Origin: an uncultured bacterium
Lineage (GTDB): Bacteria; Omnitrophota; Omnitrophia; Omnitrophales; CAZLUT01
NCBI GenBank assembly: GCA_964562805.1
Contig: CAZLUT010000002.1
Coordinates: 1,172 to 65,171, forward strand
Reading direction: 5' to 3'
Length of the DNA stretch: 64,000 nucleotides
Below the pieces are notes generated by a model. That model searched no databases. It was given only the letters and a program-made list of their open reading frames with translations, and was not told the DNA's origin. Shown piece by piece: positions 17,605 through 33,095 of this stretch. Position numbers and translations under genes: made by a program. Each line of letters starts with the position of its first letter. Within the stretch, counting starts at the first letter, position 1.

Positions 17605-17619
17605 TATTTTCTTAAATCC

Positions 17620-18378
17620 ATGAAAACGATTCTTATTATTCCGACTTATAATGAACGGAAAAATATTGAAGAACTGCTGAAAACTATCTGGGAGCATACA
17701 AAAGAATGTCCCGTGGAGGTTTTGGTGATTGATAGTGCCTCGCCAGATGGAACCGGTAAATTTTTAGATGAACTTAAAAGTAAAGATAAGAGAGTTCACG
17801 TTCTCCATCAAAGGAAGAAGCTTGGATTAGGACGGGCTTATATTGACGGTTTTCAGTGGGCTATTGGCCGGCGTAACGAATATCAGTATGTTTTTACGAT
17901 GGATGCGGACTTTTCGCATCATCCTCAGTATTTGAAATCTATGATCGAAGCTCTTAAGCAGTACGATTTGGTTATTGGATCCCGTTATGTAAAAGGCGGA
18001 GGTCTTTTGAATTGGCCTATAGTAAGGCGTTTTTTGAGTGCTTTTGCAAATTTTTATGCAAAAACAATCATTCAGCTGCCACTAAATGATGTAACCGCTG
18101 GATTTCATGGTTTTAGAATAGAGTTGCTTTCAAAAGTAATGAATTACGGTATTCAGGCGGATGGATATGCTTTTTTAATGGAACTAAAATTATTTTCTAT
18201 TTTTGAAGGAGCCCGTATCCATGAGCATCCCATTATTTTTAATGATCGTACTGAGGGCGATTCTAAGATTTCCAAACGGGTCATCTTCGAATCTATCTGT
18301 CTTACTTGGTGGCTCGGCCTTAAGCATTTAAACCGGCGTCTATTTCACAAAAAAAGCAAACCAATTAACCGTTCATAA
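17620..18378 (+). CDS. GT2 glycosyltransferase, polyprenol-phosphate sugar synthase-like (DPM1/ArnC-like)
   Basis: ILIIPTYNERKNIEEL, VLVIDSASPDGT and the DAD motif FTMDADFSHHP. Soluble, 252 aa. Confidence 0.75.
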   Translation: MKTILIIPTYNERKNIEELLKTIWEHTKECPVEVLVIDSASPDGTGKFLDELKSKDKRVHVLHQRKKLGLGRAYIDGFQWAIGRRNEYQYVFTMDADFSHHPQYLKSMIEALKQYDLVIGSRYVKGGGLLNWPIVRRFLSAFANFYAKTIIQLPLNDVTAGFHGFRIELLSKVMNYGIQADGYAFLMELKLFSIFEGARIHEHPIIFNDRTEGDSKISKRVIFESICLTWWLGLKHLNRRLFHKKSKPINRS

Positions 18379-19973
18379 TGCATCATTCTGCCATCAGCAA
18401 AACACTTTTGCTTTTGCTATTGGTTCTTATCTTGGCGTTGGGAGTCCAGCTGAGCCAAATCGACCGCCCGCTCACGGGGAATTTTGCTAGCTACCAGACA
18501 GTGTTGGCATCAATTGCGGACAACCTGGTTCGTGAGAACTTTTCGGGATTTTTATTACCTAAAACAAATTTAATTATATTGGGCGGTGAAAGATCATTAC
18601 ATTTAAATCAATATCCATTTCCGTCAGTATTGGCTGCTGCGGGGATGAGGGTTTTTGGTGGAAGTGTAGAAGTGTGGGGTCGCCTTCAGGCGGTACTGTT
18701 CAACTTATTAACCGCGCTACTTATTAGCTTTATTGGACGCCGGTTATTTTCTAAACGAACAGGCCTTGTGGCGGCGATTATTTATTTACTTTCACCCTTT
18801 GCTTTGATTTACGGGCAAAGTTTTATGTCGGAGGCAACCTCTCTTTTCTTTCTGGTTTTTGCTTTTTTTCTATTAATTCCCAGCAAGAATAGCAATTCAA
18901 GTATATTTCGAGCTATTCTATCGGCAATCTTTTTCTCTCTAACTGTTTGCGGCCGTCTCCACTTCATAGTATTTTTGCCGGCCTATCTTTTTTCCTTTTT
19001 TCTATTTGGTGACGAAAAGAAATATTCAAAAGCAATCTTGTATTTAATTTTTTCTTTGGCGGCACCCATCGCTTGGTATTCGCATACTTATTTTGCTGGT
19101 TCGACCGCAATTAATTTGCATACAAGCTTATTTCTTCAGTTGGGCGCATCAGGCGCAAGTAAAATTTCGCTATTGTTGAATCCTAGTTATTATAAGCAAA
19201 TTTTTGATACAGTTTCCGGGACGATGCTAACGCCGTTACTTTTCCCTTTCTTTTTCCTCGGGTTATTCTCTTTTAGGGACGAGAAAAAGCAGATCGGTTT
19301 GATCTTAGCAGTCTTATTTTTTGGATCTTCCATTTTTGTTTTAACTCCTCAGAAGGTAATGGATCATGATTTTTATCTATATGGCCTTTTCCCCTTTATT
19401 GCTCTGTTGGCGGCGCGTGGATTTTCACTTCTTATCGATTTATTTCCCGCTTTTAGAAAAGGAATAGTTATTTTACTCACCGTATTTTTATATTTTGTAA
19501 TTTCAGGACGGTATTTTTTTAATCCCATATTTAAATCAAGCTCTGGTGAAAAGCAGGAAGTTCAAATTGGAAAGTGGATTGAAAACAGCACGCGCTCGGG
19601 AGATAAAGTAGTTATGATTGGGAAAAATGCGCCAATTTTATTTTATTATGCTAAAAGACCTGCGTGGAATGTTTCTTTGGGTGAATCTCAAAGATTACCG
19701 GTTTATTTTGCGGGTAGGCCAGAACAGATTTTTGAAGCAGAAGAATTGAACCAGCTTAACGAGGCGATGCAAGATGATGTGAAATGGCTAGAGTACCTAA
19801 GGGGGCTGGGTGCGACTCATGTTGTTTTGGCGGAAAAAGGCTATTTAGAAAGATTTCCAACATTTAAAAATTACCTTTTAAAAAATCATAGGCAAATACA
19901 ATCAGAACATGCCGGTTTTTATTTTTTTGAGATTCAGAAAAACGAGATTTCTAGAAAAAAAGGTGAGACATAA
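18378..19973 (+). CDS. GT-C family membrane glycosyltransferase (ArnT/PMT-like), putative polyprenol-P-sugar-dependent transferase
   Basis: Roughly 11 TM helices with a C-terminal soluble domain. TAATG stop-start overlap with the upstream GT2. Confidence 0.55.
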   Translation: MHHSAISKTLLLLLLVLILALGVQLSQIDRPLTGNFASYQTVLASIADNLVRENFSGFLLPKTNLIILGGERSLHLNQYPFPSVLAAAGMRVFGGSVEVWGRLQAVLFNLLTALLISFIGRRLFSKRTGLVAAIIYLLSPFALIYGQSFMSEATSLFFLVFAFFLLIPSKNSNSSIFRAILSAIFFSLTVCGRLHFIVFLPAYLFSFFLFGDEKKYSKAILYLIFSLAAPIAWYSHTYFAGSTAINLHTSLFLQLGASGASKISLLLNPSYYKQIFDTVSGTMLTPLLFPFFFLGLFSFRDEKKQIGLILAVLFFGSSIFVLTPQKVMDHDFYLYGLFPFIALLAARGFSLLIDLFPAFRKGIVILLTVFLYFVISGRYFFNPIFKSSSGEKQEVQIGKWIENSTRSGDKVVMIGKNAPILFYYAKRPAWNVSLGESQRLPVYFAGRPEQIFEAEELNQLNEAMQDDVKWLEYLRGLGATHVVLAEKGYLERFPTFKNYLLKNHRQIQSEHAGFYFFEIQKNEISRKKGET

Positions 19974-19975: not shown

Positions 19976-21133
19976 GTGAAAAATAATAAGCGTATTCCTT
20001 ATTCTTGCCAATGGATTGATGAAAAAGATATTGAAGCGGTTGTGTCAGTTTTAAAATCAGATTTTATCACTCAAGGACCGAAAGTTGCTGAATTCGAGGA
20101 GAAGTTCGCTAAAAAGGTGGGTTCAAAATATGCCGTGGCTGTTGCGAATGGAACCGCGGGGCTTCATTTGGCGGCTTTGGCGCTTGATTTAAAAGAAGGT
20201 GATGAGGTAATCACGTCTCCTATTTCTTTTTTAGCGACGTCAAACGCGGCTTTTTATGTAGGCGCAAAACCTATTTTTGCAGACATTGATCCAAAGACCC
20301 TTTGCTTAGATGTAAAGCAAGTTAAAAAAAAGATCACTCCAAAAACAAAAGCAATTTTTCCAGTCCATTTTGCGGGCCAACCAGCCGCTTTGGAGGAGTT
20401 GTCTCAATTGTGCAAAAAACACGGTTTGTATATGGTTGAAGATGCCTGCCATGCTTTGGGAGCTCAGTATAAGCAGTCTATGGTTGGAGATTGTCAGTAT
20501 TCAAATATGGCCGTTTTTAGTTTTCATCCCGTTAAACATTTAGCAACAGGCGAGGGGGGAATGGTTACTACCAATAGCGAGAACTTGTATCAAAAGCTTT
20601 GTGATCTGCGGAGCCATGGAATGGTTCGAGATCGTGGAAGATTTGAATTAAATGATGAAGGGCCTTGGTGCTATGAAATGCAGTCTTTGGGGTTTAATTA
20701 TCGAATGACTGATATGCAGGCAGCTTTAGGTGTTTCTCAACTCGAGAAGATTGATATGTTTGTAAGTAAAAGGCGCGAGATTGCAAACCGGTATATCGAG
20801 GCATTTAAAGAATTAAAATTAGTCCGAGTTCCGGAATATATCAATGATACAGTTAATTCCCATCATTTATTTATAATTCAGCTCAATTTAAGAAATCTTA
20901 ATAAAACTCGAGCCGAAATTTTCGAAGCCTTAAAAAGCGAAGGTTTGGGGCTTCAAATTCATTATATTCCAATTCCAAGGCAGCCCTTTTATAAGAAAAA
21001 AGGGTACAACTACAAAGATTATCCGGTTGCTGAATCTTTTTATAAATCAACCATTTCAATACCGCTTTTTCCAAAGATGACCGAAGAAGAAGTGGATTAT
21101 GTTATTTCGATTGTTAAAAAGATTTTAAGCTAA
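19976..21133 (+). CDS. DegT/DnrJ/EryC1/StrS-family PLP sugar aminotransferase; with gmd possibly a GDP-perosamine synthase
   Basis: DFITQGPKVAEFEEKFAKKVGSKYAVAVANGTAGLHLA, FSFHPVKHLATGEGG carrying the PLP lysine, and NYRMTDMQAALG. GTG start. Confidence 0.8.
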   Translation: MKNNKRIPYSCQWIDEKDIEAVVSVLKSDFITQGPKVAEFEEKFAKKVGSKYAVAVANGTAGLHLAALALDLKEGDEVITSPISFLATSNAAFYVGAKPIFADIDPKTLCLDVKQVKKKITPKTKAIFPVHFAGQPAALEELSQLCKKHGLYMVEDACHALGAQYKQSMVGDCQYSNMAVFSFHPVKHLATGEGGMVTTNSENLYQKLCDLRSHGMVRDRGRFELNDEGPWCYEMQSLGFNYRMTDMQAALGVSQLEKIDMFVSKRREIANRYIEAFKELKLVRVPEYINDTVNSHHLFIIQLNLRNLNKTRAEIFEALKSEGLGLQIHYIPIPRQPFYKKKGYNYKDYPVAESFYKSTISIPLFPKMTEEEVDYVISIVKKILS

Positions 21134-21159: not shown

Positions 21160-21231
21160 ATATTATTGACTATTTTTGATTATTGTTGACATTATTTTAT
21201 TAAACACTTAAAATTTCCTGAATTTTAAGTG
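21160..21231 (+). promoter_or_regulatory. Sigma-70-like promoter with repeated TATTWTTGAY boxes and a perfect 11-bp inverted repeat overlapping the -10
   Basis: ATTATTGAC, CTATTTTTGAT and TTGTTGACA boxes. -35 TTGACA at 21185-21190, 17-bp spacer, -10 TAAAAT at 21208-21213. Palindrome CACTTAAAATT-TCCTG-AATTTTAAGTG at 21205-21231. Confidence 0.45.
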
Positions 21232-21350
21232 TTCAGCTGAGACTTTGGTTGTAGAAGAGATTTAAAATTACGATAAAGAATTTTGTTTTATACTATAATC
21301 AAAAGAGTTTTATTTGAGACAAGACTAATATAAAGTTGGGAGAATTTAAG

Positions 21351-22376
21351 ATGGCTGAGTCGAAGATTAATCAGGAAGAAACATCAGGCGGGCGAGTACT
21401 CAACTCGTCAATTCAAGCAGATCCTGATGTCCCTTTCCGGAAAAAATTTGGCCCCAAGTGGGATGAGTATCGACGTAATTGGGCAGCAGCCTCTCGAATG
21501 GAATACCGTCCTGATTTTCCTCTCTTTGTTCGCTTCGAGACTAAATTTCGCTGCAATCTTCACTGTAAAATGTGTGCGCATGGCCACCCGGATCTTGAGA
21601 AGGGGTATTCGTATGACGGTGAGCTTGATTTTGATACTTATTGCCGCTTGATTGATGAGTGTGCTGAGCATGGTTGTCCTTCAATTGGAATGAATCATGC
21701 CAACGAACCGCTTCTAGACAAAGATTTAATCGAGAGAATTAATTATGCGACTAAGCGTGGAATTATGGATATCCATATGAATACCAATGCAATGTTATTA
21801 ACTGCTGAAATGTCAAAAAAGCTTCTTGATACGGGGTTAACCAGACTTTGTTTTAGTGTGGATGCGCTAACTCCCGAGACTTTTAAAAAGATCCGGGTAG
21901 ATGCTGATTATGATCTCGTTATGTCGAATATTGACACTTTTTTAAATTTACGGGCCGAGCGAAGGCAGGATCTTCCGGTGACTCGGGTTAGCCTTGTTTT
22001 ACAGGAAGATAACAAGCACGAAGTAGATGCTTTTCGCGAGCATTGGGTCAAAAAAGTTGAGTATGTAGCGATTCAAAGGTATGTTCCCATAAGCCCATTT
22101 GATCAAGAAGAGGACGATATGCGCGCTCATGCAACGTCTTTTTCACCTAAAGAAGGCGCTCAAAAGTGTTCCTATGCCTGGGAATCTGTGTTTATCCATG
22201 GCGATGGAACTGTTTTGCCGTGTGCGGCACACAGAGCTCGAAAGATTGCCGTGGGCAATATACACAAAAACACAATTCATGAAATTTGGAATTCGCCCTC
22301 GATGGAAGAGTTGCGGATGAAGCATAAAACGGGGAATTTAGAAGGCTTAAAGCTTTGCCCGACATGCATTCAATAA
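21351..22376 (+). CDS. Radical SAM enzyme with a C-terminal SPASM/twitch-like Cys cluster
   Basis: CNLHCKMC (Cx3Cx2C). C-terminal cysteines CSYAWE...GTVLPCAAH...LKLCPTC. ATG at 21351 has a GGGAGA ribosome-binding site; the track starts at a TTG at 21336. Confidence 0.7.
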   Translation: MAESKINQEETSGGRVLNSSIQADPDVPFRKKFGPKWDEYRRNWAAASRMEYRPDFPLFVRFETKFRCNLHCKMCAHGHPDLEKGYSYDGELDFDTYCRLIDECAEHGCPSIGMNHANEPLLDKDLIERINYATKRGIMDIHMNTNAMLLTAEMSKKLLDTGLTRLCFSVDALTPETFKKIRVDADYDLVMSNIDTFLNLRAERRQDLPVTRVSLVLQEDNKHEVDAFREHWVKKVEYVAIQRYVPISPFDQEEDDMRAHATSFSPKEGAQKCSYAWESVFIHGDGTVLPCAAHRARKIAVGNIHKNTIHEIWNSPSMEELRMKHKTGNLEGLKLCPTCIQ

Positions 22377-22399: not shown

Positions 22400-23716
22400 A
22401 TGTCAAAAAAGAAAAAACTTGTTTATGTTCCGATGGCGGTTGATTTTATTCATCCAGGACATTTGAATATTATTAAGGAGGCAGCCGAACTCGGCGAAGT
22501 AGTAGTAGGTCTTTTTACAGACAAAGCGATTGCTTCTTATAAGAGACTGCCTTTTATGAGTTATGACCAGCGAAAAGAAGTTATTGAAAATGTGAAAGGT
22601 GTTGATCGAGTTGTGACGCAAGAAACACCTGATTATGAAGTGAATCTCAGGAAATATAAACCAGACTACATGGTGCATGGTACGGATTGGAAAAAAGGCC
22701 CTCTCAAAGAAGTTCGAGCTAAAGCGATTGATATTTTGGCTGAATGGGGTGGCGAGATGGTTGAGCCTGAGTACACGAAGGGTATCTCTTCCACAGAAGT
22801 GCATGTGCATCTTCGAACGATTGGTACTACACCGCAATTGCGTTTAGCCAAACTTCGCCGTCTTTTGGAAGTAAAAAACATGGTCCGCGTTATGGAGGCT
22901 CATAATGGTTTGAGTGCTTTAATTGCGGAAAAAGCAGAGATTAAAGATCCCGGCAAGCCAATTGCCGCATTTGATGCAATTTGGTTAAGCAGCTTAACAG
23001 AGTCAACCGCCAAAGGTAGGCCGGATATTGAATTGGTCGACCTTTCTTCCCGATCGAAAACTATTAACGATATTTTTGAAGTCACCGTAAAACCGATGAT
23101 CTTTGACGGTGATACGGGAGGTATTCCGGAGCATTTTATTTATACGGTTCGCACGCTTGAACGTCTAGGGGTTTCGGCTGTGGTGATTGAAGATAAGACA
23201 GGCCTGAAAATGAATTCGCTTTTTGGTACTGATGTGAAACAGACTCAGGATTCTATTGAAGCTTTTTGTAATAAGATTTCGCTCGGAAAGAAAGCCCAAA
23301 TCACACCGGATTTTATGATTATTGCTCGAATCGAAAGCTTGATTCTTCAAAAAGGTATGGAAGACGCCCTCAAGCGAGCAGTAGCTTATATTGAGGCGGG
23401 CGCGGATGGTATTATGATTCATAGCCGATCAAAAACACCTGATGAAGTTTTGGCTTTTTGCGCTGAATACAAAAAATTCAAAAAGAAGGTACCGTTAGTA
23501 GTTATTCCGACAACATATGCCCAAGTTTCTGAAAAAGAATTAATTGACGCTGGAGTTAATGTGGTGATTTATGCCAACCATCTTCTTCGCGCAGCATACC
23601 CGGCAATGGTTAAAACGGCAGAATCTATTTTGCATCATGGCCGTTCAATGGAGGCGTCGAACGATTTTTGTATGCCAGTATCTGAGATGCTGGAGATTCT
23701 AGCTAATAAATACTAA
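22400..23716 (+). CDS. pepM: Fusion of a cytidylyltransferase (TagD-like HxGH) and phosphoenolpyruvate mutase
   Basis: N-terminal FIHPGHLNII...GISSTEVH, a TagD-like CTP-transferase pattern. The C-terminal domain has the isocitrate-lyase/PEP-mutase fold with the PEP-mutase-specific motif EDKTGLKMNS (EDKxxxxxNS). Confidence 0.8.
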   Translation: MSKKKKLVYVPMAVDFIHPGHLNIIKEAAELGEVVVGLFTDKAIASYKRLPFMSYDQRKEVIENVKGVDRVVTQETPDYEVNLRKYKPDYMVHGTDWKKGPLKEVRAKAIDILAEWGGEMVEPEYTKGISSTEVHVHLRTIGTTPQLRLAKLRRLLEVKNMVRVMEAHNGLSALIAEKAEIKDPGKPIAAFDAIWLSSLTESTAKGRPDIELVDLSSRSKTINDIFEVTVKPMIFDGDTGGIPEHFIYTVRTLERLGVSAVVIEDKTGLKMNSLFGTDVKQTQDSIEAFCNKISLGKKAQITPDFMIIARIESLILQKGMEDALKRAVAYIEAGADGIMIHSRSKTPDEVLAFCAEYKKFKKKVPLVVIPTTYAQVSEKELIDAGVNVVIYANHLLRAAYPAMVKTAESILHHGRSMEASNDFCMPVSEMLEILANKY

Positions 23717-23741: not shown

Positions 23742-24881
23742 GTGTTAAATTGTGCTGATTTTTTTAGGGTCTTAACTCAAAAAGGCGTTCAATTTTATTG
23801 CGGTGTTCCTGATTCTTTGCTCAAATCCTTTTGTGCTTATTTATCTGACGCACTCCCTGAAGATAAAAATATAATTGCCGTTAATGAAGGAGCTGCGGTT
23901 GCGTTGGCTTCCGGAGTTTATATGGCGACAGGACAACCAGCCGTTGTTTATATGCAGAATTCGGGAGAAGGGAATGCAGCGAATCCTCTTCTCTCGCTTG
24001 CCGATTCCAAAGTATACAGTATCCCTATGTTGCTATTAGTGGGATGGCGTGGAGAGCCTGGAGTGAAGGATGAGCCACAGCATATTAAGCAGGGAGAGGT
24101 TACTTTAGCGCTTTTAGATGCGATGGGTATTCGGTATGAGATACTTCCATCTGATGTAAAATTGGCCGAAGCGGCTATCCAGAGAGCTTTTGAATATATG
24201 AATTTGAAGAAAGCTCCTTATGCCCTAATTATTCGTAAGGACACTTTTGAGCCTTACGCTTCTACTGCGACACGCGCCGAAAATAACTACTCACTTAGCC
24301 GTGAAGATGCGATACAAGAAATTATTCAATTTACAAAAAACATGCAAAATCAGCCCGCTTTTGTATCCACTACCGGAATGACTTCTCGAGAACTTTTTGA
24401 AAACCGAGCCAAGAATAGAGAATCGTTAAGCTCTGATTTTCTTACGGTAGGCTCAATGGGTCACGCATCTTCGATTGCCTTAGGACTTGCATTAAATTTA
24501 CCCAATCGGGATGTTTTTTGTGTTGATGGAGATGGTGCTATGCTGATGCATATGGGGAGCTTAGCGACCATTGGCAGCTCCGGTGTTAAGAATTTTAAAC
24601 ATATCCTGATTAATAACGGAGCACATGACTCCGTAGGCGGTCAGCCTACTTGCGGGTTTAAAGTCAATTTCCGAGAGATTGCCAAGGCTTGTGGTTACAC
24701 CAATACTTGGTTAGCAACGAATAAGGATGAATTAAAAGAATGTTTGAAGCAAATGGTTACAAAAGAAGATTTAGAGCTTTTGGAAATTCGAGTAAAAAAA
24801 GGAGCTAGGAAAGATTTGGGTCGCCCCACTTCCTCGCCAGGAGAGAATAAAATTCAATTTATGGAATATTTAAAAGGTTAA
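23742..24881 (+). CDS. ppd: Phosphonopyruvate decarboxylase (TPP-dependent)
   Basis: N-terminal GVQFYCGVPDSLLKSF. TPP-binding motif GDGAMLMHMGSLATIG...NNGAHDSVGGQ. Size roughly 379 aa, immediately downstream of pepM. GTG start. Confidence 0.8.
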   Translation: MLNCADFFRVLTQKGVQFYCGVPDSLLKSFCAYLSDALPEDKNIIAVNEGAAVALASGVYMATGQPAVVYMQNSGEGNAANPLLSLADSKVYSIPMLLLVGWRGEPGVKDEPQHIKQGEVTLALLDAMGIRYEILPSDVKLAEAAIQRAFEYMNLKKAPYALIIRKDTFEPYASTATRAENNYSLSREDAIQEIIQFTKNMQNQPAFVSTTGMTSRELFENRAKNRESLSSDFLTVGSMGHASSIALGLALNLPNRDVFCVDGDGAMLMHMGSLATIGSSGVKNFKHILINNGAHDSVGGQPTCGFKVNFREIAKACGYTNTWLATNKDELKECLKQMVTKEDLELLEIRVKKGARKDLGRPTSSPGENKIQFMEYLKG

Positions 24882-24886: not shown

Positions 24887-25603
24887 ATGATAAATGTAAT
24901 TGCTATAGATGGTCCTTCATATGTTGGTAAAAGCACAGTAGCTCGTTCGTTGGCTGCCTTATTGGGTTATGACTTTATTAATACTGGCCATATGTTTCGC
25001 GTGGTCGCACGAGAATGTCTTTTAAGAAATCTTTCTGTAAAGAAGGAAGGTGAGGTTGCAGATCTGGCGCATTGTCTTGATATTCAGTTTGAAAGTAATG
25101 AAAAAGGCAACTCGAGAACTCTGGTTAACGGTGAAGATTTAACCGAAGCTTTAGAGGGGCATGAGATTATGCTTTTAGCTGCCAAAGTGGCTCAGATTGG
25201 AAAGTTGCGGGATATTTTAACTGAGAAGCAGCGCTTGTATGCCGACAAAAAGATGATTGTCATGGAGGGCCGAGACATTGGCTCAATTGTTTTTCCTGAT
25301 GCAAAGTGGAAATTTTTTATTACAGCTTCGATGGAAATTCGTGCTAAGCGAATGTATAAAATTATGAATGAAGCTGAGAAGAAGAATTGCTCTGATTACC
25401 ATACGTTGATTCCAAAGCTAGAAGAGATTGATGAGGCCGACCGCAATCGCAAGATTTCGCCGCTTAGAATCGCCGATGATGCAATTATTTATGATAATTC
25501 TGACAGTCCTAGTGAACATGAAGATTCGTTGATTTTAAAATACTACATTACACACACGGACGAGATTGTTAAAAATACAGAAATTCTGAAGTTTAAAAAA
25601 TAA
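24887..25603 (+). CDS. cmk: Cytidylate kinase
   Basis: IAIDGPSYVGKSTVARSLA P-loop, GRDIGSIVFPDAKWKFFITAS and RDRNRKISPLRIADDA align closely with canonical Cmk. Confidence 0.75.
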   Translation: MINVIAIDGPSYVGKSTVARSLAALLGYDFINTGHMFRVVARECLLRNLSVKKEGEVADLAHCLDIQFESNEKGNSRTLVNGEDLTEALEGHEIMLLAAKVAQIGKLRDILTEKQRLYADKKMIVMEGRDIGSIVFPDAKWKFFITASMEIRAKRMYKIMNEAEKKNCSDYHTLIPKLEEIDEADRNRKISPLRIADDAIIYDNSDSPSEHEDSLILKYYITHTDEIVKNTEILKFKK

Positions 25604-25613
25604 GGAAAGATTC

Positions 25614-26480
25614 ATGGAAACTATTAAAGAGCTTAAAGTGATCTGTCAAACAACAGCGCAAAAAGACATTTCAAATGTTTATATGCGCTATATTTGCCGT
25701 CCGATTTCAATTCGTATCACACGCTTTCTTATTCCAACAGCAGTCACTCCGGACCAAGTTAGCTTTGCGATGATTGTTACGGGTGTTATTGCGAGCCTTA
25801 TATTTTTAATAGCGCATCCTATAAGTTTTTTCCTGGCAGCGCTCCTTCTTCAGTTTTGGTATATTTTAGATTGTGTCGATGGAGAATTGGCTCGTTATCG
25901 CTCCTATTCCAAAAATAAAGAAGTGATCCAGGATAAGGCTACTTTGCCGATAACGGGTGCTTATTGGGATTATCTCAATCATTACATTGTTCACGGGCTT
26001 GTACCGCTTACGATTTCTTACGGATTGTTTCTTAAGACACAAAATTCGTTTTGGATTTTACTCGGATTTGTCACCTCGACTTTCCAAGTGATGTTGCTTG
26101 CTATTCACGATACGCAATGCCGCGCCTATCTAACTAAAATCCGGAAAACACTTCCGACTCATGTATTGAATGTTAAATCGGCGTCGGAAGTGGATGAGGC
26201 TGCGCCAGAAAAAAAGAAAATGAAAGGAATAATGTTTTTGAAGCTGCCATTTGTGACCGTCCATTATCTTTCGACTTATCCTTCGGTGATGAATGTGATA
26301 ACTGTGCTTGCTCTTACGTCGTGCTTAACAGGATTTGGGAGTGATTTTAGAGGTTTCTTTCTTTGGTTTTATGCGTTGGGATCAGGTGTTGTTTTTTTAG
26401 GTTTAGCTTATAAGCTGCTCCATGACCGTGGTCTCGATAAGGAATTTGATAAAGAATTTTATTTAGAAAAACGCACCTAA
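25614..26480 (+). CDS. CDP-alcohol phosphatidyltransferase-family membrane protein
   Basis: Polytopic membrane protein with the DxxDGxxAR start of the CDP-OH phosphotransferase motif (LDCVDGELARYRS). Confidence 0.55.
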   Translation: METIKELKVICQTTAQKDISNVYMRYICRPISIRITRFLIPTAVTPDQVSFAMIVTGVIASLIFLIAHPISFFLAALLLQFWYILDCVDGELARYRSYSKNKEVIQDKATLPITGAYWDYLNHYIVHGLVPLTISYGLFLKTQNSFWILLGFVTSTFQVMLLAIHDTQCRAYLTKIRKTLPTHVLNVKSASEVDEAAPEKKKMKGIMFLKLPFVTVHYLSTYPSVMNVITVLALTSCLTGFGSDFRGFFLWFYALGSGVVFLGLAYKLLHDRGLDKEFDKEFYLEKRT

Positions 26481-26533: not shown

Positions 26534-27574
26534 GTGAAAAATAAAAAAATAAAATCAATTAACTGCCTTTTTTTGTTGGATGCTGGTCCAGGAATAGGGA
26601 TGGGACACTTGAGGAGATGTCTTGTTTTGGCCGAAAAGCTGAAGCAAAAAGGTGTTAAAAATATATGTTTTGCAACTAAAACGCCGAATGATATTTCAGT
26701 TTTGGTTGGAGCAAAATTCCCAATTATTCATTTGCCTTCTACTGACAGTCTAAAAAATAGAACCGATCTTTTGCAGTCAAAAATAAAAGATTACCGGACA
26801 AAACTTATTATTGTGGATAGTTACAAGATAGCGGTCAATTCACTTCGAGCGATAGAGAAGAGAATAGCACCTGTAATTGTGTTAGATGATTATTTGCACT
26901 TATCTCATTATCCGGTTTCCGGAATTATTAACTACAACCTTGGCGCTGAAAAGCGTACTTATAAATGTGAGTCAGAAACCAGATTGTTTCTTGGAGCGAA
27001 ATACGCCCTTATTTCCGGAGAATTTATCAAAGAAAAAAAGTCAGCTCGGGTTCAAGGGATAGGGCGTCGGTTATTTGTGTCTTTAGGCGCAAATCCAGCG
27101 GGAAGCTTGCTCAAAAAAACGCTTAAAGCGATTGGGAACATAGAAGAAAATCTGAAGATTTCTTTGGTTTTGAGTCCTTGTTATCCGAATAGAGATAAGT
27201 ATAAAAGCGGCAAGGTTTCTCTGGTTGCTCCGAACGCTATCGCCCGGGCAATGAAGCGGTGCGACTTTGCCTTAAGTGCTGCCGGGGTTACAAGTTATGA
27301 GCTTGTATTTATGAGGATTCCAACGCTATTGTTTGTATTAGCTCGGAACCAAAGCCGAGTTGCAGAAGAAATGCAGCGTTGTGGCGCGGCTAAAAATTTA
27401 GGTTGGTTAAAAACTATTTCAACTAGTAAACTAACAGTTGAAATCAGCAATTTTGTGAATAGTAAAATGAAAGTGGCTGGCAAAAAAGTTACTAAGTTTA
27501 ATAAGATTGACGGTAAGGGTTCAGATCGTCTCGCTAGTTTTATTATTTCTGAATATTTGAGGGGGAAAAAGTGA
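26534..27574 (+). CDS. pseG: PseG-like UDP-sugar hydrolase (GT28-like; pseudaminic acid pathway)
   Basis: IGMGHLRRCLVLAEK matches the PseG/SpsG G-x-G-H-x-x-R motif. By-eye alignment with C. jejuni PseG along the length (LIIVDSYKIA, GAKYALISGEF, FVSLGANP). GTG start. Confidence 0.65.
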   Translation: MKNKKIKSINCLFLLDAGPGIGMGHLRRCLVLAEKLKQKGVKNICFATKTPNDISVLVGAKFPIIHLPSTDSLKNRTDLLQSKIKDYRTKLIIVDSYKIAVNSLRAIEKRIAPVIVLDDYLHLSHYPVSGIINYNLGAEKRTYKCESETRLFLGAKYALISGEFIKEKKSARVQGIGRRLFVSLGANPAGSLLKKTLKAIGNIEENLKISLVLSPCYPNRDKYKSGKVSLVAPNAIARAMKRCDFALSAAGVTSYELVFMRIPTLLFVLARNQSRVAEEMQRCGAAKNLGWLKTISTSKLTVEISNFVNSKMKVAGKKVTKFNKIDGKGSDRLASFIISEYLRGKK

Positions 27575-28305
27575 AGATTGTTGCTACTATCGAAGCGAGG
27601 ATGGGTTCCAGCCGGCTTCCTGGAAAGATTCTTAAAAATATTTTGGATAAGCCGACTCTAGAGCTGCTCGTTGAGCGGGTTAGAAAATCAAAGCACATTG
27701 AGCAGGTGGTTGTAGCCACTACGGTTGATCCGAGTGACAACATCACCGAAGAAAATTGCCGCAAGATCGGTATTGATTGTTTCCGAGGAAGCTCCGAAGA
27801 TGTTTTGAATAGAGTGCTTCAAACAGCCAAAGCATATCAGGCTGATTTAATCGTAGAATTAACAGGCGACTGCCCGCTTTTAGATCCAGAAATTATTGAT
27901 AGTGTTATCGAAAAGTATCTTAGCGGTTCATTTGATTATGTAAGCAATGTTTTGGAAAGAACTTATCCGAGAGGCTTGGATACCCAGGTTTTTTCAACGG
28001 CTGTTTTAGAGAAAGTGTCTCAAATCACTCAGGATCCGGCTGACAGAGAAAACGTTTCGCTTTATATCTATGAAAACCCCGAGCAATTTAAGCTAGGGAA
28101 CGTTAAAGCTTCCTCGGAGCATAACAGGCCGGATTTAAGATTAACCGTTGATACGGTTGAGGATTTTAAATTAATTAGTTCGATCTATAATGAGTTGTAT
28201 CCAAAAAACAAAGACTTTAATTTGTCGGATGTGATTAAGCTTTTAAATCAAAAGCCTGAACTCAGCAAGCTTAACGCGGATGTTCAGCAGAAGAAAGCAA
28301 GATGA
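27571..28305 (+). CDS. pseF: CMP-nonulosonic acid synthetase (acylneuraminate cytidylyltransferase family; PseF/SpsF-like)
   Basis: KIVATIEARMGSSRLPGKILKNI and VVVATT. Size 244 aa. GTG start after a GAGGGGGA ribosome-binding site. Confidence 0.7.
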   Translation: MKIVATIEARMGSSRLPGKILKNILDKPTLELLVERVRKSKHIEQVVVATTVDPSDNITEENCRKIGIDCFRGSSEDVLNRVLQTAKAYQADLIVELTGDCPLLDPEIIDSVIEKYLSGSFDYVSNVLERTYPRGLDTQVFSTAVLEKVSQITQDPADRENVSLYIYENPEQFKLGNVKASSEHNRPDLRLTVDTVEDFKLISSIYNELYPKNKDFNLSDVIKLLNQKPELSKLNADVQQKKAR

Positions 28306-29348
28306 GTGGAGTTGATAAAAAATCAAAAAAACTAAGAGCCGGCATCGTTGGATGCGGTCGAATTGCAAGTACGTTTGATTCGGATCCTAAGCGGAAGAAT
28401 ATTGCTACTCATGCCGGTGCTTATACAGCGTCACCTGGTGTTGACTTGGTAGCGGCATGTGATCTCGATGAGAAAAAAGTGGCAGCCTTTGGCGAGCGCT
28501 GGAAGGTTAAAAATTTATATACCAACTTTAATAAAATGCTTAAAAGTGAGAAGTTGGATATTCTAAGTCTCTGCACTTGGGCTGGATCTCACTTTCAATT
28601 GGCAAAAACTGCGATTAATAGCGGCGTAAAAGCGGTGTTTTGTGAGAAGCCTATAACAGTTTCTTTGAGTGAGGCGGATCAGCTGATTAAATTAGCCAAA
28701 CGCAAAAAAGTTGTATTTGCGGTTAATCACTCGAGGAGATGGGATTCAGGTCTTCAAAAAATAAAGTCTGCGATTAATCAGGGTAAGTTGGGTGAAATTC
28801 GCCAGGTGAGCTGTTATTACACTGCTGGCATTTCAAACACTGGAACTCACTTATTTGACTTATTAAATTTTTTCTTTGGTGATGCGAAACAGGTAATTGG
28901 CGCTGTTAGCAATTTAGTTGATAAAAAGGGTGCTGATCCAACTGTTTCAGGATTAATAGAGTATAAGAGCGGAACGTTGGTTTCTGTTCAGGGATTGAAT
29001 GTGAATGATTATTTAATTTTTGAGATAGATATTTATGGCTCGAAAGGAAGGATTCGCATTTGTAATAGCGGTTTTAAATCTCAGGTCTGGAAAGTTTTGC
29101 CAAGTGATTATTTTTCAGGCTACAAAGAGCTTAAAGAGGTAAAGTCATCTTTCGATTTATCCAAAAAAGAACAGATGAAAAACGCCGTCAAAGATATAAT
29201 GCAATGCATAAAAACAAAAAAGAAACCGTCCTCAAGCGCTAAGGATGGCATGAAAGCACTGGAGCTTATTTGCGCCATGAAGCTCTCATGCAAAAAAGGG
29301 ACCAAAGTAGATTTGCCGCTTAAAAATAGAAATATTACAACGGAGTAA
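28302..29348 (+). CDS. Gfo/Idh/MocA-family NAD(P)-dependent sugar oxidoreductase
   Basis: LRAGIVGCGRIAS Rossmann N-terminus and EKP motif CEKPIT. ATGA overlap with the upstream gene. Confidence 0.75.
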   Translation: MSGVDKKSKKLRAGIVGCGRIASTFDSDPKRKNIATHAGAYTASPGVDLVAACDLDEKKVAAFGERWKVKNLYTNFNKMLKSEKLDILSLCTWAGSHFQLAKTAINSGVKAVFCEKPITVSLSEADQLIKLAKRKKVVFAVNHSRRWDSGLQKIKSAINQGKLGEIRQVSCYYTAGISNTGTHLFDLLNFFFGDAKQVIGAVSNLVDKKGADPTVSGLIEYKSGTLVSVQGLNVNDYLIFEIDIYGSKGRIRICNSGFKSQVWKVLPSDYFSGYKELKEVKSSFDLSKKEQMKNAVKDIMQCIKTKKKPSSSAKDGMKALELICAMKLSCKKGTKVDLPLKNRNITTE

Positions 29349-29351
29349 AAG

Positions 29352-30590
29352 ATGACTGATCCAATCAGAACAAAGCCATTCCCCCAACACCCCACTTTTG
29401 ATGAAGAGGCAAAGCGTGGAGTTCTTGATGTGTTGTCATCGGGCGTGCTTTCCGGATTTGTAGCTAATTCGGGGCCTAATTTTTTAGGTGGTCCGAAAGT
29501 CAAGGAATTAGAAGCAGCTTTCTGCGATTATTTTGGCGTAAAATATGCGATGACCGTTAATTCTGCAACGGCGGGGCTGCACGCTGCGGTTGCTGCGTGT
29601 GGCATTGGGCCGGGGGATGAGGTGATCGTGCCTCCTTATACGATGTCAGCTTCCGCGAGTGCGGTATTGATGCAGAGTGCTGTGCCGCTGTTTGCAGACA
29701 TTCAAGATGATATCTATTGCGTTGATCCAAAATCTATTGAAGAGAGAATTACATCTCGAACCAAAGCTATTATTGTGGTTCATTTATTTGGGCATCCGGC
29801 AGACATGGACTCTATTTCAAAAATCGCCAAAAAACACGGCTTAAAAATTATTGAGGACTGTGCTCAGGCTCCCGGGGTCAAATATAAAAATAAATTTGTC
29901 GGAACCATCGGTGATATTGGAGTTTTTAGCTTCAATCAGCATAAAACTATTACAACGGGTGAAGGCGGCGTTGTTATTACCAACAGTGAAGAAGCTGCTT
30001 TAAAAGTGCGCCTAGTTCGTAATCATGGCGAAGCCGTTTTGGAAAACATGGAAATAAATGATTATTCAAACACTCTCGGCTGGAATTATCGAATGACCGA
30101 GCTGGAGGCGGCCGTTGGCATTACTCAATTTAAGAAGCTCGACACCCTAACGAAACACAAACAAGAGTTGGCGAATGTTCTAAATGAAAAGCTTAAGAAA
30201 TTTGAAGAGTTAAGTTTGCCGGTAGCACTGGATGGATGTAGTCATGGCTATTTTGTATATCCAATGAAGTGGCGCGCATCTAAAACAGGTCTGTCGCGCG
30301 ATCAAATAGTCGAAGCTTTAAATAAGGAGGGAATCCCTTTTGGCAAAGGCTATGTTCGGCCTCTTTATCTTTTGCCGCTTTTTCAAAAGCAGATATGTTT
30401 TGGCAGTAACGGCTGGCCTTTTACATCAATACCTGAGAAGGAGAGGCAGAAATATAAAAAAGGACTTTGTCCTGTTGCTGAGAGGATGTACGAAAAGGAG
30501 CTTATGCTGACAGGTGTTTGTTATTGGCCGGTTACGAAAGAAGATATCATGGATGTTGTAAAGGCATTCGAGAAGATATTAAAAAAATGA
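29352..30590 (+). CDS. pseC: DegT-family PLP aminotransferase, PseC-like (UDP-4-keto-6-deoxy-sugar aminotransferase)
   Basis: FCDYFGVKYAMTVNSATAGLHAA, FSFNQHKTITTGEGG and NYRMTELEAAVG. Confidence 0.75.
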   Translation: MTDPIRTKPFPQHPTFDEEAKRGVLDVLSSGVLSGFVANSGPNFLGGPKVKELEAAFCDYFGVKYAMTVNSATAGLHAAVAACGIGPGDEVIVPPYTMSASASAVLMQSAVPLFADIQDDIYCVDPKSIEERITSRTKAIIVVHLFGHPADMDSISKIAKKHGLKIIEDCAQAPGVKYKNKFVGTIGDIGVFSFNQHKTITTGEGGVVITNSEEAALKVRLVRNHGEAVLENMEINDYSNTLGWNYRMTELEAAVGITQFKKLDTLTKHKQELANVLNEKLKKFEELSLPVALDGCSHGYFVYPMKWRASKTGLSRDQIVEALNKEGIPFGKGYVRPLYLLPLFQKQICFGSNGWPFTSIPEKERQKYKKGLCPVAERMYEKELMLTGVCYWPVTKEDIMDVVKAFEKILKK

Positions 30591-31651
30591 AAAGAAAAAA
30601 ACAGATTAAAATCAATAATAAGCCGATAGGTGATGGGGCACCCGTTTTTGTCATAGCGGAAGCCGGTTCTAATCACAATGGAAGTCTAAGGCAAGCAAAG
30701 AAACTTATTGATATTGCTGCTAAGGCGGGGGCGGACGCAGTTAAGTTTCAGACGTTTTCTGCAGATAAATTGTATTCGAAAAAAACCCCGATGATGAGTT
30801 ATCTCAGAAAAAACAAGCTGGTAAAGAAAAAAGAAACGGTTTGGGATCTTCTAAAAAAACTTGAAATTCCGAGAGTTTGGCATTCCGAATTAGCTAAGTA
30901 TTGCCGTTTAAAAAAAATATTTTTTCTTTCGACTCCATTTGATCTAAAGGCTGTTGATCAATTGGAAGCGGTTAATATGGCTGCTTATAAAATCGCCTCA
31001 TATGAAATAACCCATCTTCCTCTCTTGGAGAAAGTTGCAAAAACAGGGAAGCCGATTATTCTGTCGACCGGCATGGCAGATTTGGATGATATTAGGGTTG
31101 CATTAAAAACTATATATAGAACAGGAAATAAAAAAGTTGTTCTTTTGCATTGCGCTATCAACTACCCACCCAAATTTGAAGATCTTCATTTAAAAGCGAT
31201 GCAGACGATAAGGAACGAATTTAAGGTGCCCGTTGGTTTTTCAGATCATACGATGGGACTGACATCCGATGTTGCTGCTGTTGCTTTAGGGGCATGCGTA
31301 ATTGAAAAACATTATACGATTAGCCGGAAGCTCGAAGGCCCTGACCATTCTTTTTCATTGGAGCCTGACGAATTAAAAAACATGATCCAAGGTATCCGCG
31401 ACACCGAACGTGCTTTGGGCCTACCAATTAAACGAGCGACAAAAGCGGAAAAGGAAATGTATCGTCTTGGCCGGAGAAGTTTGGTTGCGGCCTGCAGCAT
31501 TCCAAAGGGAGCCAAAATATCTCGTAGGATGATCGAAGTAAAAAGACCGGGCTTTGGAATTCCAACCAAAGATATGAATCAAGTTATTGGCCGGCTAGCA
31601 TCTCGGGATATCGAAACAGACGATATTCTTTCGTGGAAGATGATTCGGTAA
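30587..31651 (+). CDS. pseI: Nonulosonic acid synthase (NeuB/PseI family) with a C-terminal SAF domain
   Basis: IGDGAPVFVIAEAGSNHNGSLRQAKKLIDIAAKAGADAVKFQTF. ATGA overlap start at 30587; the track's 30518 start lies inside the upstream gene. Confidence 0.85.
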   Translation: MKRKKQIKINNKPIGDGAPVFVIAEAGSNHNGSLRQAKKLIDIAAKAGADAVKFQTFSADKLYSKKTPMMSYLRKNKLVKKKETVWDLLKKLEIPRVWHSELAKYCRLKKIFFLSTPFDLKAVDQLEAVNMAAYKIASYEITHLPLLEKVAKTGKPIILSTGMADLDDIRVALKTIYRTGNKKVVLLHCAINYPPKFEDLHLKAMQTIRNEFKVPVGFSDHTMGLTSDVAAVALGACVIEKHYTISRKLEGPDHSFSLEPDELKNMIQGIRDTERALGLPIKRATKAEKEMYRLGRRSLVAACSIPKGAKISRRMIEVKRPGFGIPTKDMNQVIGRLASRDIETDDILSWKMIR

Positions 31652-31750
31652 TTTAACCGACGTCTCTTTGTTGCTGTCGGCTGGTTTTTAGGTAACAGAT
31701 TAATCAAAATCATAAATATATTGGTTTTTAAAGATTTATTTTGATAAGAC

Positions 31751-31790
31751 TTGACTATTATTGACAACTATAAGCTATTTTTGATAAGAT
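31751..31790 (+). promoter_or_regulatory. Second copy of the TTGACTATT(A/T)TTGA promoter box pair upstream of the HTH-pseB sub-operon
   Basis: TTGACTATTATTGACAACTATAAGCTATTTTTGATAAGAT. Its first 13 nt match 21166-21178 at 12 of 13 positions, and the CTATTTTTGAT box is shared. Confidence 0.4.
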
Positions 31791-31839
31791 TTATACGGTC
31801 TCAAAAATAACATAAGAGAATATAGAGGGTTAGTATTAT

Positions 31840-32100
31840 ATGGATGAAATCAAAGAAAATGCTGTTTATACGCCAGCAGAAACTCAAAAAATTTTAAAAA
31901 TCAGTGCAAGCACCATGACTCGCCTCATTAAAAAAGGATTGATTCATGCGGCCAAAATAGGGGGGCAATACCGCATTTTAGGTAAAGAAATTTTAAGAGC
32001 GATGTCGCCAAAATTGGAAGATAAAGTAGGAAAAATATACAACAAAGGCCGGCAATGGGTTCATGAAGACGATGATCCAAACAGAAAGGTCAAAAAATGA
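31840..32100 (+). CDS. Small excisionase-family/MerR-like helix-turn-helix DNA-binding protein
   Basis: TPAETQKILKISASTMTRLIKKGLIHAAKIGGQYRI matches the HTH_17/excisionase pattern. Size 86 aa. Its stop overlaps the pseB start as ATGA. Confidence 0.55.
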   Translation: MDEIKENAVYTPAETQKILKISASTMTRLIKKGLIHAAKIGGQYRILGKEILRAMSPKLEDKVGKIYNKGRQWVHEDDDPNRKVKK

Positions 32101-33095
32101 AAGATTTTTTCAAAAATAAGACAATTTTAGTCACGGGCGGCACAGGATCGTTTGGTAAAAAATTCATTAAAATGACTCTCGAAAACTTTTCACCAAAAAA
32201 AGTAATTATTTATTCCAGGGACGAAATGAAACAGTGGGAAATGCAGGATGAGTATAAAGAGTACGATAAAAGAAATGTGCTTAGGTATTTTATAGGCGAT
32301 GTTAGAGACCGAGAGCGTTTAGAGAGGGCATTCCACGGTGTTGATTATGTGGTGCATGCTGCCGCAACTAAAATTGTACCGACAGCAGAATACAATCCAA
32401 TTGAATGCATCAAGACCAACGTCAATGGCGCTATTAACGTGATTGATGCTGCAATTGACCAAAAGGTAAAAAGAGTCGTAGCTCTTAGCACCGACAAGGC
32501 AAGTAATCCTATTAATTTGTATGGTGCTACCAAGTTATGTTCCGATAAATTGTTTGTGGCTGCAAACGCATACACAGGAGACCAAGATACTCGTTTGTCT
32601 GTTGTTAGATATGGGAATGTGATGGGTAGTCGCGGCTCTATCATTCCTTTTTTTAGGTCTATCAAAAGCAAAAATAAGATTCCAATTACAGATATAAGGA
32701 TGACACGATTCATGATCACACTTGAGCAGGGTGTGGAATTGGTTTGGCTGGCGTTGCATGAAGCAATCGGTGGTGAGATCTATGTGCCTAAAATCCCTTC
32801 GATGAAGGTGGTTGATATTGCCAAAGGAATCGCACCAAACGCTGAACACAATATTATAGGGATCCGACCTGGAGAGAAGATACATGAATCGCTGATTAGC
32901 GAAGAAGATGCTCGAAATACTTATGAATATAAGGATTGTTACAAGATCCTGCCGGCTATTTATGATTGGCATGAATGTGCGACTCGAATAGGTGACGGAA
33001 AGAGGTGTGAGGAGGGTTTTTCTTATGCAAGCGGTAACAATTCCAAATGGATGACAAGTGAAGAACTGTCTAACTGGATGGAGAGGGAATATTAA
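32097..33095 (+). CDS. pseB: UDP-GlcNAc 4,6-dehydratase/5-epimerase (PseB/FlaA1/CapD family)
   Basis: KTILVTGGTGSFGKKFIKM, YxxxK (YGATKLCSDK). Size 332 aa. Confidence 0.85.
   Translation: MKDFFKNKTILVTGGTGSFGKKFIKMTLENFSPKKVIIYSRDEMKQWEMQDEYKEYDKRNVLRYFIGDVRDRERLERAFHGVDYVVHAAATKIVPTAEYNPIECIKTNVNGAINVIDAAIDQKVKRVVALSTDKASNPINLYGATKLCSDKLFVAANAYTGDQDTRLSVVRYGNVMGSRGSIIPFFRSIKSKNKIPITDIRMTRFMITLEQGVELVWLALHEAIGGEIYVPKIPSMKVVDIAKGIAPNAEHNIIGIRPGEKIHESLISEEDARNTYEYKDCYKILPAIYDWHECATRIGDGKRCEEGFSYASGNNSKWMTSEELSNWMEREY

Follow-up and report, generated by a model that had tools for sequence, protein, structure and literature searches.

Why should genes for a CMP kinase and for a membrane enzyme of the CDP-alcohol phosphotransferase type stand directly behind genes for phosphonate synthesis? 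The question is raised by a 64,000-nt stretch of an uncultured Omnitrophota genome (assembly GCA_964562805.1, contig CAZLUT010000002.1, positions 1,172 to 65,171), hereafter the window. An earlier note on this DNA had pointed to a cytidylate kinase (cmk) homologue and a polytopic membrane protein just downstream of the genes for phosphoenolpyruvate (PEP) mutase (Ppm, encoded by pepM) and phosphonopyruvate decarboxylase (Ppd). Both open reading frames (ORFs) are present, with exactly the coordinates and sizes it gave: the kinase gene at 24887-25603 (+ strand, 238 aa) and the gene for the membrane protein, below called the transferase, at 25614-26480 (+ strand, 288 aa, six predicted transmembrane (TM) helices). 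Their spacing is operon-like, with 5 nt between the Ppd stop codon and cmk and 10 nt between cmk and the transferase gene, the ATG of which is preceded by the ribosome-binding-like site AAGGAAAG. Our answer, to which we would assign a probability of roughly one half, is that the transferase moves a cytidine-activated phosphorus head group to a membrane-associated glycan acceptor and that the kinase removes the CMP released in this reaction. Judging from gene content and conservation, the Cmk paralogue, a transferase with a histidine variant of the family motif and, usually, a NUDIX hydrolase are a conserved accessory module serving cell-surface glycan clusters.

The identity of the kinase is clear. 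It scores 195.4 bits with the (d)CMP kinase equivalog model TIGR00017 (cut-off 135.55) and matches both Pfam Cytidylate_kin (E=8.6e-55) and the structure of E. coli Cmk (1kdo, E=4e-35), so the cmk homology claimed for it holds; an orthologue from another locus (L078) reaches 202.1 bits with the same model. Its P-loop reads G9-PSYVGKS-T17. We compared 73 members of the subfamily to which the kinase belongs with 44 canonical Cmk sequences and E. coli Cmk. The catalytic and CMP-binding residues (K18, R41, R110, R131, D132, R157, D185 and R188 in E. coli numbering) are kept in the subfamily, with K18, R41, R110, R131, D132, D185 and R188 being 99-100% conserved both in its 73 members and in canonical Cmk. 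Since every catalytic and substrate-binding residue is retained, the chemistry of the kinase is almost certainly the conversion of CMP to CDP. Residues conserved in the subfamily only (F68, T78, W141, K158, Y202, N204, P208, D213 and an A214-equivalent, the last being Ser in the window kinase) all occupy non-catalytic positions. When 5.8 billion proteins were searched with the window kinase, this subfamily appeared as about 75 clusters scoring 165-519 bits at 42-100% identity, and a step in score separated it from the canonical Cmk of many phyla (at most about 160 bits, about 40% identity). By these sequence comparisons, the kinase is a member of a distinct accessory Cmk clade.

The transferase is a divergent member of its family. 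It only barely reaches the cut-off of the Pfam model PF01066 (CDP-OH_P_transf) with 22.6 bits against 22.0, over residues 45-97 and profile positions 3-53 of 152, and most of its close homologues have no precomputed match to this model. The first half of the family motif is present as D86-C-V-D89-G-E-L-A93-R94. In an alignment of 25 close homologues, D86, C87, D89, G90, E91, A93, R94 and Y95 are invariant, as are, past a spacer of 20 residues, G115, D119, N122, H123 and Y124. The canonical signature D1-x2-D2-G-x2-A-R-x7-8-G-x3-D3-x3-D4 is therefore incomplete: the spacer is 20 residues long, and D4 is replaced by His123, which is found in 25/25 relatives. A profile built from this alignment matches AF2299 (4o6m) with E=2e-12, and its consensus GAYYDLLNHY aligns with GAWLDGVLDRY of AF2299, placing His at the fourth Asp and a 12-residue insertion in the spacer. 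An AlphaFold2 model of the transferase (pLDDT 89.1, pTM 0.84) was compared with the PDB using Foldseek, and the top 15 matches were all CDP-alcohol phosphotransferases (AF2299, PIPS, PgsA1 and IPCT-DIPPS), led by AF2299 (E=3.8e-6, probability 1.00, TM-score about 0.57). Assignment of the predicted structure to the CDP-alcohol phosphotransferase fold is thus solid; of what the earlier note had proposed, the fold and the DxxDGxxAR half of the motif stand, while the full canonical motif, with its spacer of 8 and its fourth Asp, does not. An exhaustive HMMER search returned 128 clusters (50% identity) at E<=1e-30 and 1,492 at E<=1e-10. The motif was recognisable in 124 of the top 146 representatives, with a spacer of 8 in 113/124 and of 20 in only 7/124, and His at the D4 position in 106/124. 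Because the long spacer is rare and the His common across these representatives, the transferase belongs to a large His-variant clade and, within it, to a small sub-branch marked by the insertion; members of the clade carry generic CDP-alcohol-family names in their source records, or none.

The linkage of the two genes is conserved. We collected 73 loci with transferase relatives and nine more via individual proteins, and mapped homologues of the neighbouring genes onto them (loci are numbered with the prefix L). In 26/26 close loci for which upstream DNA is available, the operon of the transferase gene also contains a gene of the Cmk subfamily; these loci come from metagenome-assembled genomes (MAGs) labelled Omnitrophota, Verrucomicrobiae, Planctomycetia and Actinomycetota. 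In most of them, cmk is located directly 5' of the transferase gene, the two genes often overlapping by 4-26 nt or standing 3-10 nt apart; intervening genes are present in L085 (one), L080 (two) and L083 (five). Three members of the Cmk subfamily picked independently of the transferase each proved to have a transferase gene adjoining. The third component, a NUDIX hydrolase gene, is found directly 5' of cmk in about 20 loci, its products being 54-64% identical between loci. The window has a NUDIX gene as well (43758-44288, + strand, Pfam NUDIX E=3.7e-19), encoding an orthologue 60% identical to the Cmk-adjacent NUDIX of L079; it is displaced 17 kb downstream of the pair, where the same co-directional run of glycan genes ends. 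The protein is closest to ADP-ribose/NDP-X pyrophosphatases, its nearest solved structures being ADP-ribose pyrophosphatase/NudF (E=4e-26), and its gene is preceded by a methyltransferase gene (43059-43754 in the window), an arrangement repeated in several other loci.

What lies upstream of this module suggests which substrate it may handle. In the window, the gene at 22400-23716 (+ strand) encodes a fusion of a Fom1-type cytidylyltransferase (CyTase, about residues 1-140) with a PEP mutase (about residues 150-438), recognised by Pfam CTP_transf_like and PEP_mutase and scoring 403.7 bits with the PEP mutase equivalog TIGR02320 (cut-off 319.55). Its N-terminal PF01467 domain (residues 5-139) matches PDB entry 5x3d with E=1.3e-48; the entry is labelled 'Phosphoenolpyruvate phosphomutase', and we take it to be the Fom1 CyTase domain. 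The PEP mutase part matches the Ppm structure 5unc with E=1.1e-47. Next comes Ppd (23742-24881, + strand), with 492.9 bits in the equivalog model TIGR03297 (cut-off 312.5). Judging by these domain assignments, the CyTase::Ppm fusion makes the C-P bond and presumably also activates the phosphonate with CMP.

Other loci show different genes at the same place. We sorted 23 distinct loci by their head-group genes into type A (10), type B (7), type C (5) and one other. Type A loci (the window, L005, L006/L080, L009, L014, L035/L081, L082, L083, L084 and the partial L038) encode Ppm, Ppd and a nucleotidyltransferase that is either fused or a protein of its own, and in many cases also an iron-dependent alcohol dehydrogenase (Fe-ADH). 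Type B loci (L007, L010, L011, L013/L078, L033, L037 and L086), from Omnitrophota-type MAGs, have instead a trio encoding a PEP-utilizer protein of 776-793 aa that resembles the Gln kinase, a glutamine amidotransferase (GATase) and a LicC-like nucleotidyltransferase, with the module directly 3' (for example, L078:5370-9126). This trio probably corresponds to Cj1418, Cj1417 and Cj1416 of the Campylobacter jejuni O-methyl phosphoramidate (MeOPN) pathway: in L078, NF004508 scores 953 bits, above its cut-off, and the gamma-glutamyl-CDP-amidate hydrolase model NF045546 scores 187.5 bits, below its cut-off of 250. No kinase of the Cj1415 type was recognised in type B loci, where the Cmk paralogue holds that position, and methyltransferases lie near the module in the type B loci whose called genes were inspected (L078 and L086). 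The MeOPN-type trio is absent from the window. Both kinds of cassette end in a cytidine-P-O-P(X) compound, where X stands for an alkyl group if the product is a CMP-phosphonate and for NH2 if it is cytidine diphosphoramidate, and such cytidylyl-activation genes are found directly 5' of the module in 17/23 loci (10 of type A and 7 of type B). The locus outside these types, L008, has a nucleotidyltransferase with HTH-cupin-like and Fe-ADH-like proteins and lacks Ppm. The same association extends to distant members of the clade: those in L052 and L062 adjoin a CyTase::Ppm 61-63% identical to that of the window, the order in L062 being Wzc, epimerase, a 175-aa protein without Pfam match, Ppd, GT1, CyTase::Ppm, aldehyde dehydrogenase, nucleotidyltransferase, CDP-OH_P_transf, Wzx and Wzy. 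In the majority of the distant loci, a LicC-like or TagD-like nucleotidyltransferase is located within a few kb.

The window ORFs between 3.9 and 44.3 kb were scanned with Pfam. Neither LicD nor any other recognised phosphotransferase was found among them, nor in the compact operons L080-L084 and L086, leaving the transferase as the only phosphonyl transferase candidate that Pfam finds among the window ORFs scanned; the contrast with LicD-type systems drawn by the earlier note agrees with this. Neighbouring proteins without a Pfam match, scanned at E values up to 1, yielded HTH-cupin proteins, a weak TagF-like match in L085 and nothing else. The proposal that a CMP-activated phosphonate is transferred with recycling of CMP fares well in that relatives of the pair directly follow Ppm/Ppd/cytidylyltransferase or MeOPN cassettes; the tie to pepM does not survive, 13/23 typed loci having no Ppm within about 10 kb.

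The surroundings of the module are those of a surface glycan cluster. Genes for nonulosonic acid synthesis (PseB, PseC, PseG, NeuB and CTP_transf_3) occur in most loci with several kb of flank, and so do methyltransferases and a pair of glycosyltransferases of families GT2 and GT-C (PMT_2 or YfhO). In the window, PseG (NCBIfam, 178.7 bits), CTP_transf_3, a GFO/IDH/MocA oxidoreductase, a DegT aminotransferase, NeuB, an HTH_17 protein and PseB are encoded at 26534-33095 (+ strand), and PseC at 19976-21133 (NCBIfam PseC, 516.5 bits). Pfam assigns to 17620-19973 (+ strand) a GT2 enzyme of the kind that synthesises polyprenyl-phosphate sugars and a GT-C glycosyltransferase of the PMT_2 family; a YfhO GT-C gene lies, also by Pfam, at 13126-15570, and a Wzx-like flippase at 37253-38722. 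From 13126 to 19973 the order is YfhO-family GT-C, methyltransferase, GDP-mannose-dehydratase-like epimerase, GT2 and PMT_2; such recurrent GT2 and PMT_2/YfhO genes hint at a polyprenyl-phosphate-sugar route for the decorated sugar. The block of CTP_transf_3, GFO/IDH/MocA, DegT and NeuB genes at 27571-31651 is conserved in L027, L028 and L084, and its composition suggests a nonulosonic acid made with an extra oxidation and transamination step. A small HTH_17 (excisionase-like) gene stands directly 5' of PseB in the window (31840-32100) as well as in L080 (16158-16400), L084 (18633-18824) and L086 (14695-14958). Conserved over distant loci in this way, it may encode a regulator specific to nonulosonate synthesis. 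After the acetyltransferases of the nonulosonate block come a 377-aa protein without Pfam match (34179-35312) and a 625-aa LIC12162/GT-like protein (35383-37260), both of which are candidate nonulosonate transferases.

For the donor, the acceptor, the direction of flux and the roles of the kinase and the NUDIX hydrolase, we infer the following sequence of events from gene content and residue conservation. The CyTase::Ppm fusion and Ppd would yield a phosphonate derived from phosphonoacetaldehyde, and the Fom1-type CyTase domain would convert it into a CMP-phosphonate with a cytidine-P-O-P(X) skeleton like that of a CDP-alcohol. The transferase would bind this donor at a metal site formed by D86, D89 and D119, with His123 replacing the fourth Asp as general base, and, on the cytoplasmic side of the membrane, would pass the phosphonyl group to a hydroxyl of the acceptor and release CMP. 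Since GT2/GT-C pairs, a Wzx-like flippase and nonulosonate genes are constantly found nearby, the likeliest acceptor is a sugar linked to polyprenyl phosphate or a glycan that contains nonulosonate, which the Wzx-like flippase and GT-C enzymes would then take over. Reactions of this family are reversible and are pushed backwards by CMP. The co-translated Cmk, by turning CMP into CDP, would pull such a reversible, CMP-inhibited reaction forward and would resupply both cytidylyltransferases of the cluster with cytidine nucleotides; the NUDIX protein would probably hydrolyse surplus or wrong CDP-X to CMP and P-X.

Several observations weigh against this scenario. The canonical catalytic Asp is missing from the transferase sequence, and a need for a dedicated Cmk beside any housekeeping one is argued rather than observed. 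The five type C loci (L027, L028, L030/L079, L040 and L085) contain no recognisable head-group genes within about 10 kb, and in L085 a cytidylyltransferase of the CMP-nonulosonate type (CTP_transf_3) is located between cmk and the transferase gene. The module is found with nonulosonate genes more regularly than with any one phosphorus cassette, so the link could be to the sugar and not to the head group. Finally, the transferase tree groups by cassette type, with the Cmk tree being noisier; this lends weak support to donor specificity, and the grouping may merely reflect co-inheritance of whole clusters.

Of the alternatives, the one that survives best, although we regard it as unlikely, is that the transferase is an ordinary phosphatidyltransferase that uses CDP-diacylglycerol (CDP-DAG) or another common CDP-alcohol to build a phosphatidyl anchor or a glycerophosphate-type decoration, the phosphonate or phosphoramidate being attached by another, unrecognised enzyme. 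Most characterised bacterial members of the family do use CDP-DAG, and PIPS and PgsA1 are among the Foldseek matches; yet in both sequence and structure the transferase is matched best by AF2299 and by the soluble-donor enzyme IPCT-DIPPS, not by the CDP-DAG users. To our knowledge, enzymes of the PgsA and PssA types show no strict need for a private Cmk. The type C loci, lacking head-group genes, would suit a phosphatidyltransferase, and so would the passages of a published account in which the related clusters of Nostoc and Burkholderia are read as phosphonolipid synthesis (PMC5987646). Against this stands the position of the transferase gene directly after cytidylyl-activation genes in 17 loci. 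Several proteins without Pfam match could hide another transferase, but in compact operons such as L082, L084 and L086 nothing can be recognised as another transferase for phosphonyl or phosphoramidyl groups.

A second alternative takes up the sugar link: the transferase would be a membrane nonulosonate transferase that uses CMP-nonulosonate, for instance to modify polyprenyl phosphate or a lipid-linked glycan, and leaves CMP to the Cmk. It would then represent a new sialic-acid-type glycosyltransferase fold. The module is most commonly found among nonulosonate genes; in L085, cmk, CTP_transf_3 and the transferase gene follow one another with overlaps, and in the window the transferase gene is followed by PseG and CTP_transf_3. 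Even the replacement of the catalytic Asp fits, His being a common base in sialyltransferases. However, the chemistry would be another one, with attack on an anomeric carbon instead of the beta-phosphorus, and the metal-binding Asp triad that holds the diphosphate is retained. Types A and B would be left without a head-group transferase, while the window has separate candidates for nonulosonate transfer in its 625-aa and 377-aa proteins. We consider this explanation improbable.

It is also very doubtful that the Cmk-like protein is an analogue of Cj1415, phosphorylating the ribose of the CDP-amidate or CMP-phosphonate to give the transferase a cofactor resembling 3'-phosphoadenosine 5'-phosphosulfate. 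Its position speaks for such a role: in the seven MeOPN-type loci, the kinase gene sits where Cj1415 would be expected, after Cj1418/1417/1416-like genes, and Cj1415-1418 together make CDP-phosphoramidate 3'-phosphate (PMC11800397). The contacts to the phosphate, base and ribose of CMP (R41, R110, R131, D132, D185 and R188) are nevertheless all kept, the residues specific to the subfamily lie outside the substrate-binding positions, and the cmk equivalog cut-off is passed. We have down-weighted a Cj1415-like role because the comparison of the 73 subfamily members with 44 canonical sequences and E. coli Cmk revealed no change at any substrate-binding residue.

Least probable of all, and in our view close to dismissal, is the housekeeping alternative offered by the earlier note, that is, the organism's housekeeping CMP kinase gene placed in the cluster by chance: the equivalog match and the intact catalytic residues would agree with it, but the kinase belongs to a small subfamily set apart by a score step, with its specific residues confined to non-catalytic positions, co-operonic with the transferase in every close locus with upstream DNA, and, because the close transferase subfamily is carried by only 11/185,579 species representatives, most relatives of these bacteria must use another Cmk.

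Some further observations concern the genes around the module. In the window, a radical SAM/SPASM enzyme (21336-22376, + strand, Pfam Radical_SAM and SPASM) is encoded directly 5' of Ppm and is a possible phosphonate-tailoring enzyme. A radical SAM/SPASM gene also precedes Ppm in other type A loci; a shared orthologous tailoring enzyme was ruled out, the window copy being only 21% identical to that of L080. Both L080 and L082 have B12-binding radical SAM genes, the products of which might be Fom3-like. The scan of window ORFs between 3.9 and 44.3 kb revealed neither a class-V 2-aminoethylphosphonate (AEP) transaminase nor an Fe-ADH; an Fe-ADH does occur in other type A loci. Beside Ppm, Ppd and Fe-ADH, proteins with helix-turn-helix (HTH) and cupin hits below the family cut-offs are encoded in L081 (2736-3446), L084 (2948-3658) and L083 (9148-10509), with a length of 236 aa (one unit) or 453 aa (about double). 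Their domain make-up resembles that of phosphonate oxygenases of the HppE/HEPD/MPnS type, and methyl- or hydroxymethyl-phosphonate is a possible product of the loci concerned, the marine L083 among them.

Upstream of the radical SAM gene, the sole sizeable intergenic gap (between PseC and the radical SAM gene) contains the best sigma-70-like match (11/12, 21186-21214), a match that by itself does not speak for function. It could be a promoter for an operon running from the radical SAM gene through Ppm, Ppd and cmk to the transferase gene; the scan of 19-33.5 kb for promoters and terminators gave, overall, counts no higher than expected from shuffled sequence. In L085 (5427-9849), the genes for Cmk, CTP_transf_3 and the transferase follow one for a 661-aa protein with a weak match to TagF (E=0.008), of the CDP-glycerol glycerophosphotransferase family; upstream are genes for pyruvate-dehydrogenase-E1-like and lipoyl/hexapeptide acyltransferase proteins, and the locus lacks NUDIX, Ppm and MeOPN genes. 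In L049, a single 491-aa ORF (5936-7408) spans nucleotidyltransferase-like and CDP-alcohol phosphotransferase-like matches and is an apparent fusion, resembling IPCT-DIPPS in architecture; a motif search did not find the canonical DxxDGxxAR in it.

Keeping in mind the interchange of cassettes, it is tempting to widen the picture. Tentatively, and with less confidence than we would need to insist on it, we suppose that the Cmk paralogue, the His-variant transferase and the NUDIX hydrolase constitute a plug-and-play 'cytidine cycle' cassette with which uncultivated bacteria decorate their nonulosonate-bearing surface glycans with non-canonical phosphorus head groups, either C-P phosphonates or N-P phosphoramidates. 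The missing class of phosphonyl-tailoring membrane transferases would then be the His-variant clade as a whole, which numbers at least 128 clusters at 50% identity and would also be the basis of an MeOPN route that skips the 3'-phosphorylated donor of Campylobacter. The transferase family is a concrete and testable candidate for the phosphonate step after activation, with the simple signature DxxDGxxARY...GxxxDxxxH, and the module offers a rationale for a private CMP kinase. Loci in which the same module goes with phosphonate genes, with phosphoramidate genes or with neither of the two are natural experiments. If the scenario is true, removal of CMP is built into the transferase operon, an annotation is gained for a branch of the CDP-alcohol phosphotransferase superfamily that is large and still uncharacterised, and phosphonoglycan producers can be better predicted from metagenomes, which matters for marine phosphonate cycling.

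Parts of this arrangement have been described before. Rice et al. (2019) reported the CyTase::Ppm architecture, the PF01467 type making up 23.6% of their inventory of Ppm fusions, called the steps after cytidylyl activation of cell-surface phosphonates enigmatic, and drew attention to neighbouring genes for LicD-like phosphotransferases or for glycosyltransferases (PMC6697681). In the passages on Nostoc and Burkholderia (PMC5987646) and on Pantoea (PMC9933511), an annotated CDP-alcohol phosphatidyltransferase accompanies pepM, ppd and a nucleotidyltransferase; these passages contain no NUDIX or nonulosonate context, and the term 'cytidylate kinase' was not found in the text of either paper. 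A preprint on Borgs mentions a gene resembling those of CDP-alcohol phosphotransferases in the vicinity of MeOPN-like and phosphonate genes and reads it as phospholipid synthesis. Our literature search found no description of the Cmk-transferase pair or of a His-variant clade with a private Cmk and usually a NUDIX hydrolase, of an interchange of phosphonate and phosphoramidate cassettes before the same module, or of a nonulosonate-glycan setting in Omnitrophota-type MAGs, and no report of MeOPN-type phosphoramidate transfer worked out outside Campylobacter. A CDP-alcohol phosphotransferase beside pepM is therefore already known, and the novelty lies in the dedicated Cmk, whether or not a NUDIX hydrolase accompanies it; what the earlier note called an unusual complete module is unusual in its kinase, precedented in its pairing with pepM, and better described as a trio with NUDIX.

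Compared with known systems, the window shares CyTase::Ppm, Ppd and CMP activation for surface decoration with the Pnt pathway, in which a PntC/Fom1-type CyTase is followed by LicD (PMC6697681), and differs from it in that no LicD was found in the ORFs scanned, a CDP-alcohol phosphotransferase-like enzyme with a private Cmk and a NUDIX hydrolase being there instead. The clusters of Nostoc, Burkholderia and Pantoea, likened here by their description in the passages cited, imply the same succession of CTP activation, transfer and CMP release (PMC5987646, PMC9933511); those of Nostoc and Burkholderia differ in being read there as phosphonolipid synthesis and in including an AEP transaminase (PMC5987646).

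With the C. jejuni MeOPN system (Cj1418, Cj1417, Cj1416 and Cj1415, with the transferases Cj1421 and Cj1422), seven loci have in common genes resembling Cj1418/1417/1416 directly 5' of the module. Cj1415 is a homologue of adenosine 5'-phosphosulfate kinase, whereas type B loci have a true Cmk-type kinase in its place, which suggests that cytidine diphosphoramidate is used directly, with CMP as by-product, and not as a 3'-phosphorylated donor. The C. jejuni pathway itself makes cytidine diphosphoramidate and, with Cj1415, its 3'-phosphate (PMC11800397).

The kinase, in turn, resembles canonical Cmk (E. coli, 1kdo) in fold family, P-loop and all residues in contact with CMP and ATP, and differs in belonging to a separate accessory clade, about 40% identical, with conserved non-catalytic residues of its own; its setting is a glycan operon instead of a housekeeping one. 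The closest counterparts of the transferase in both sequence and structure are AF2299 and IPCT-DIPPS of Archaeoglobus fulgidus (4o6m and 4mnd), the latter of which uses a soluble CDP-alcohol made by a partner nucleotidyltransferase. They share with it the six-TM fold with an active site on TM2-TM3, the D-x2-D-G-x2-A-R half of the motif and G-x3-D. Unlike them, the window protein has no N-terminal cytoplasmic domain, carries the 12-residue insertion and has His for the fourth Asp; its family lives in bacterial glycan clusters, always linked to a Cmk paralogue, and its presumed donors bear P-C or P-N groups in place of a phospho-alcohol.

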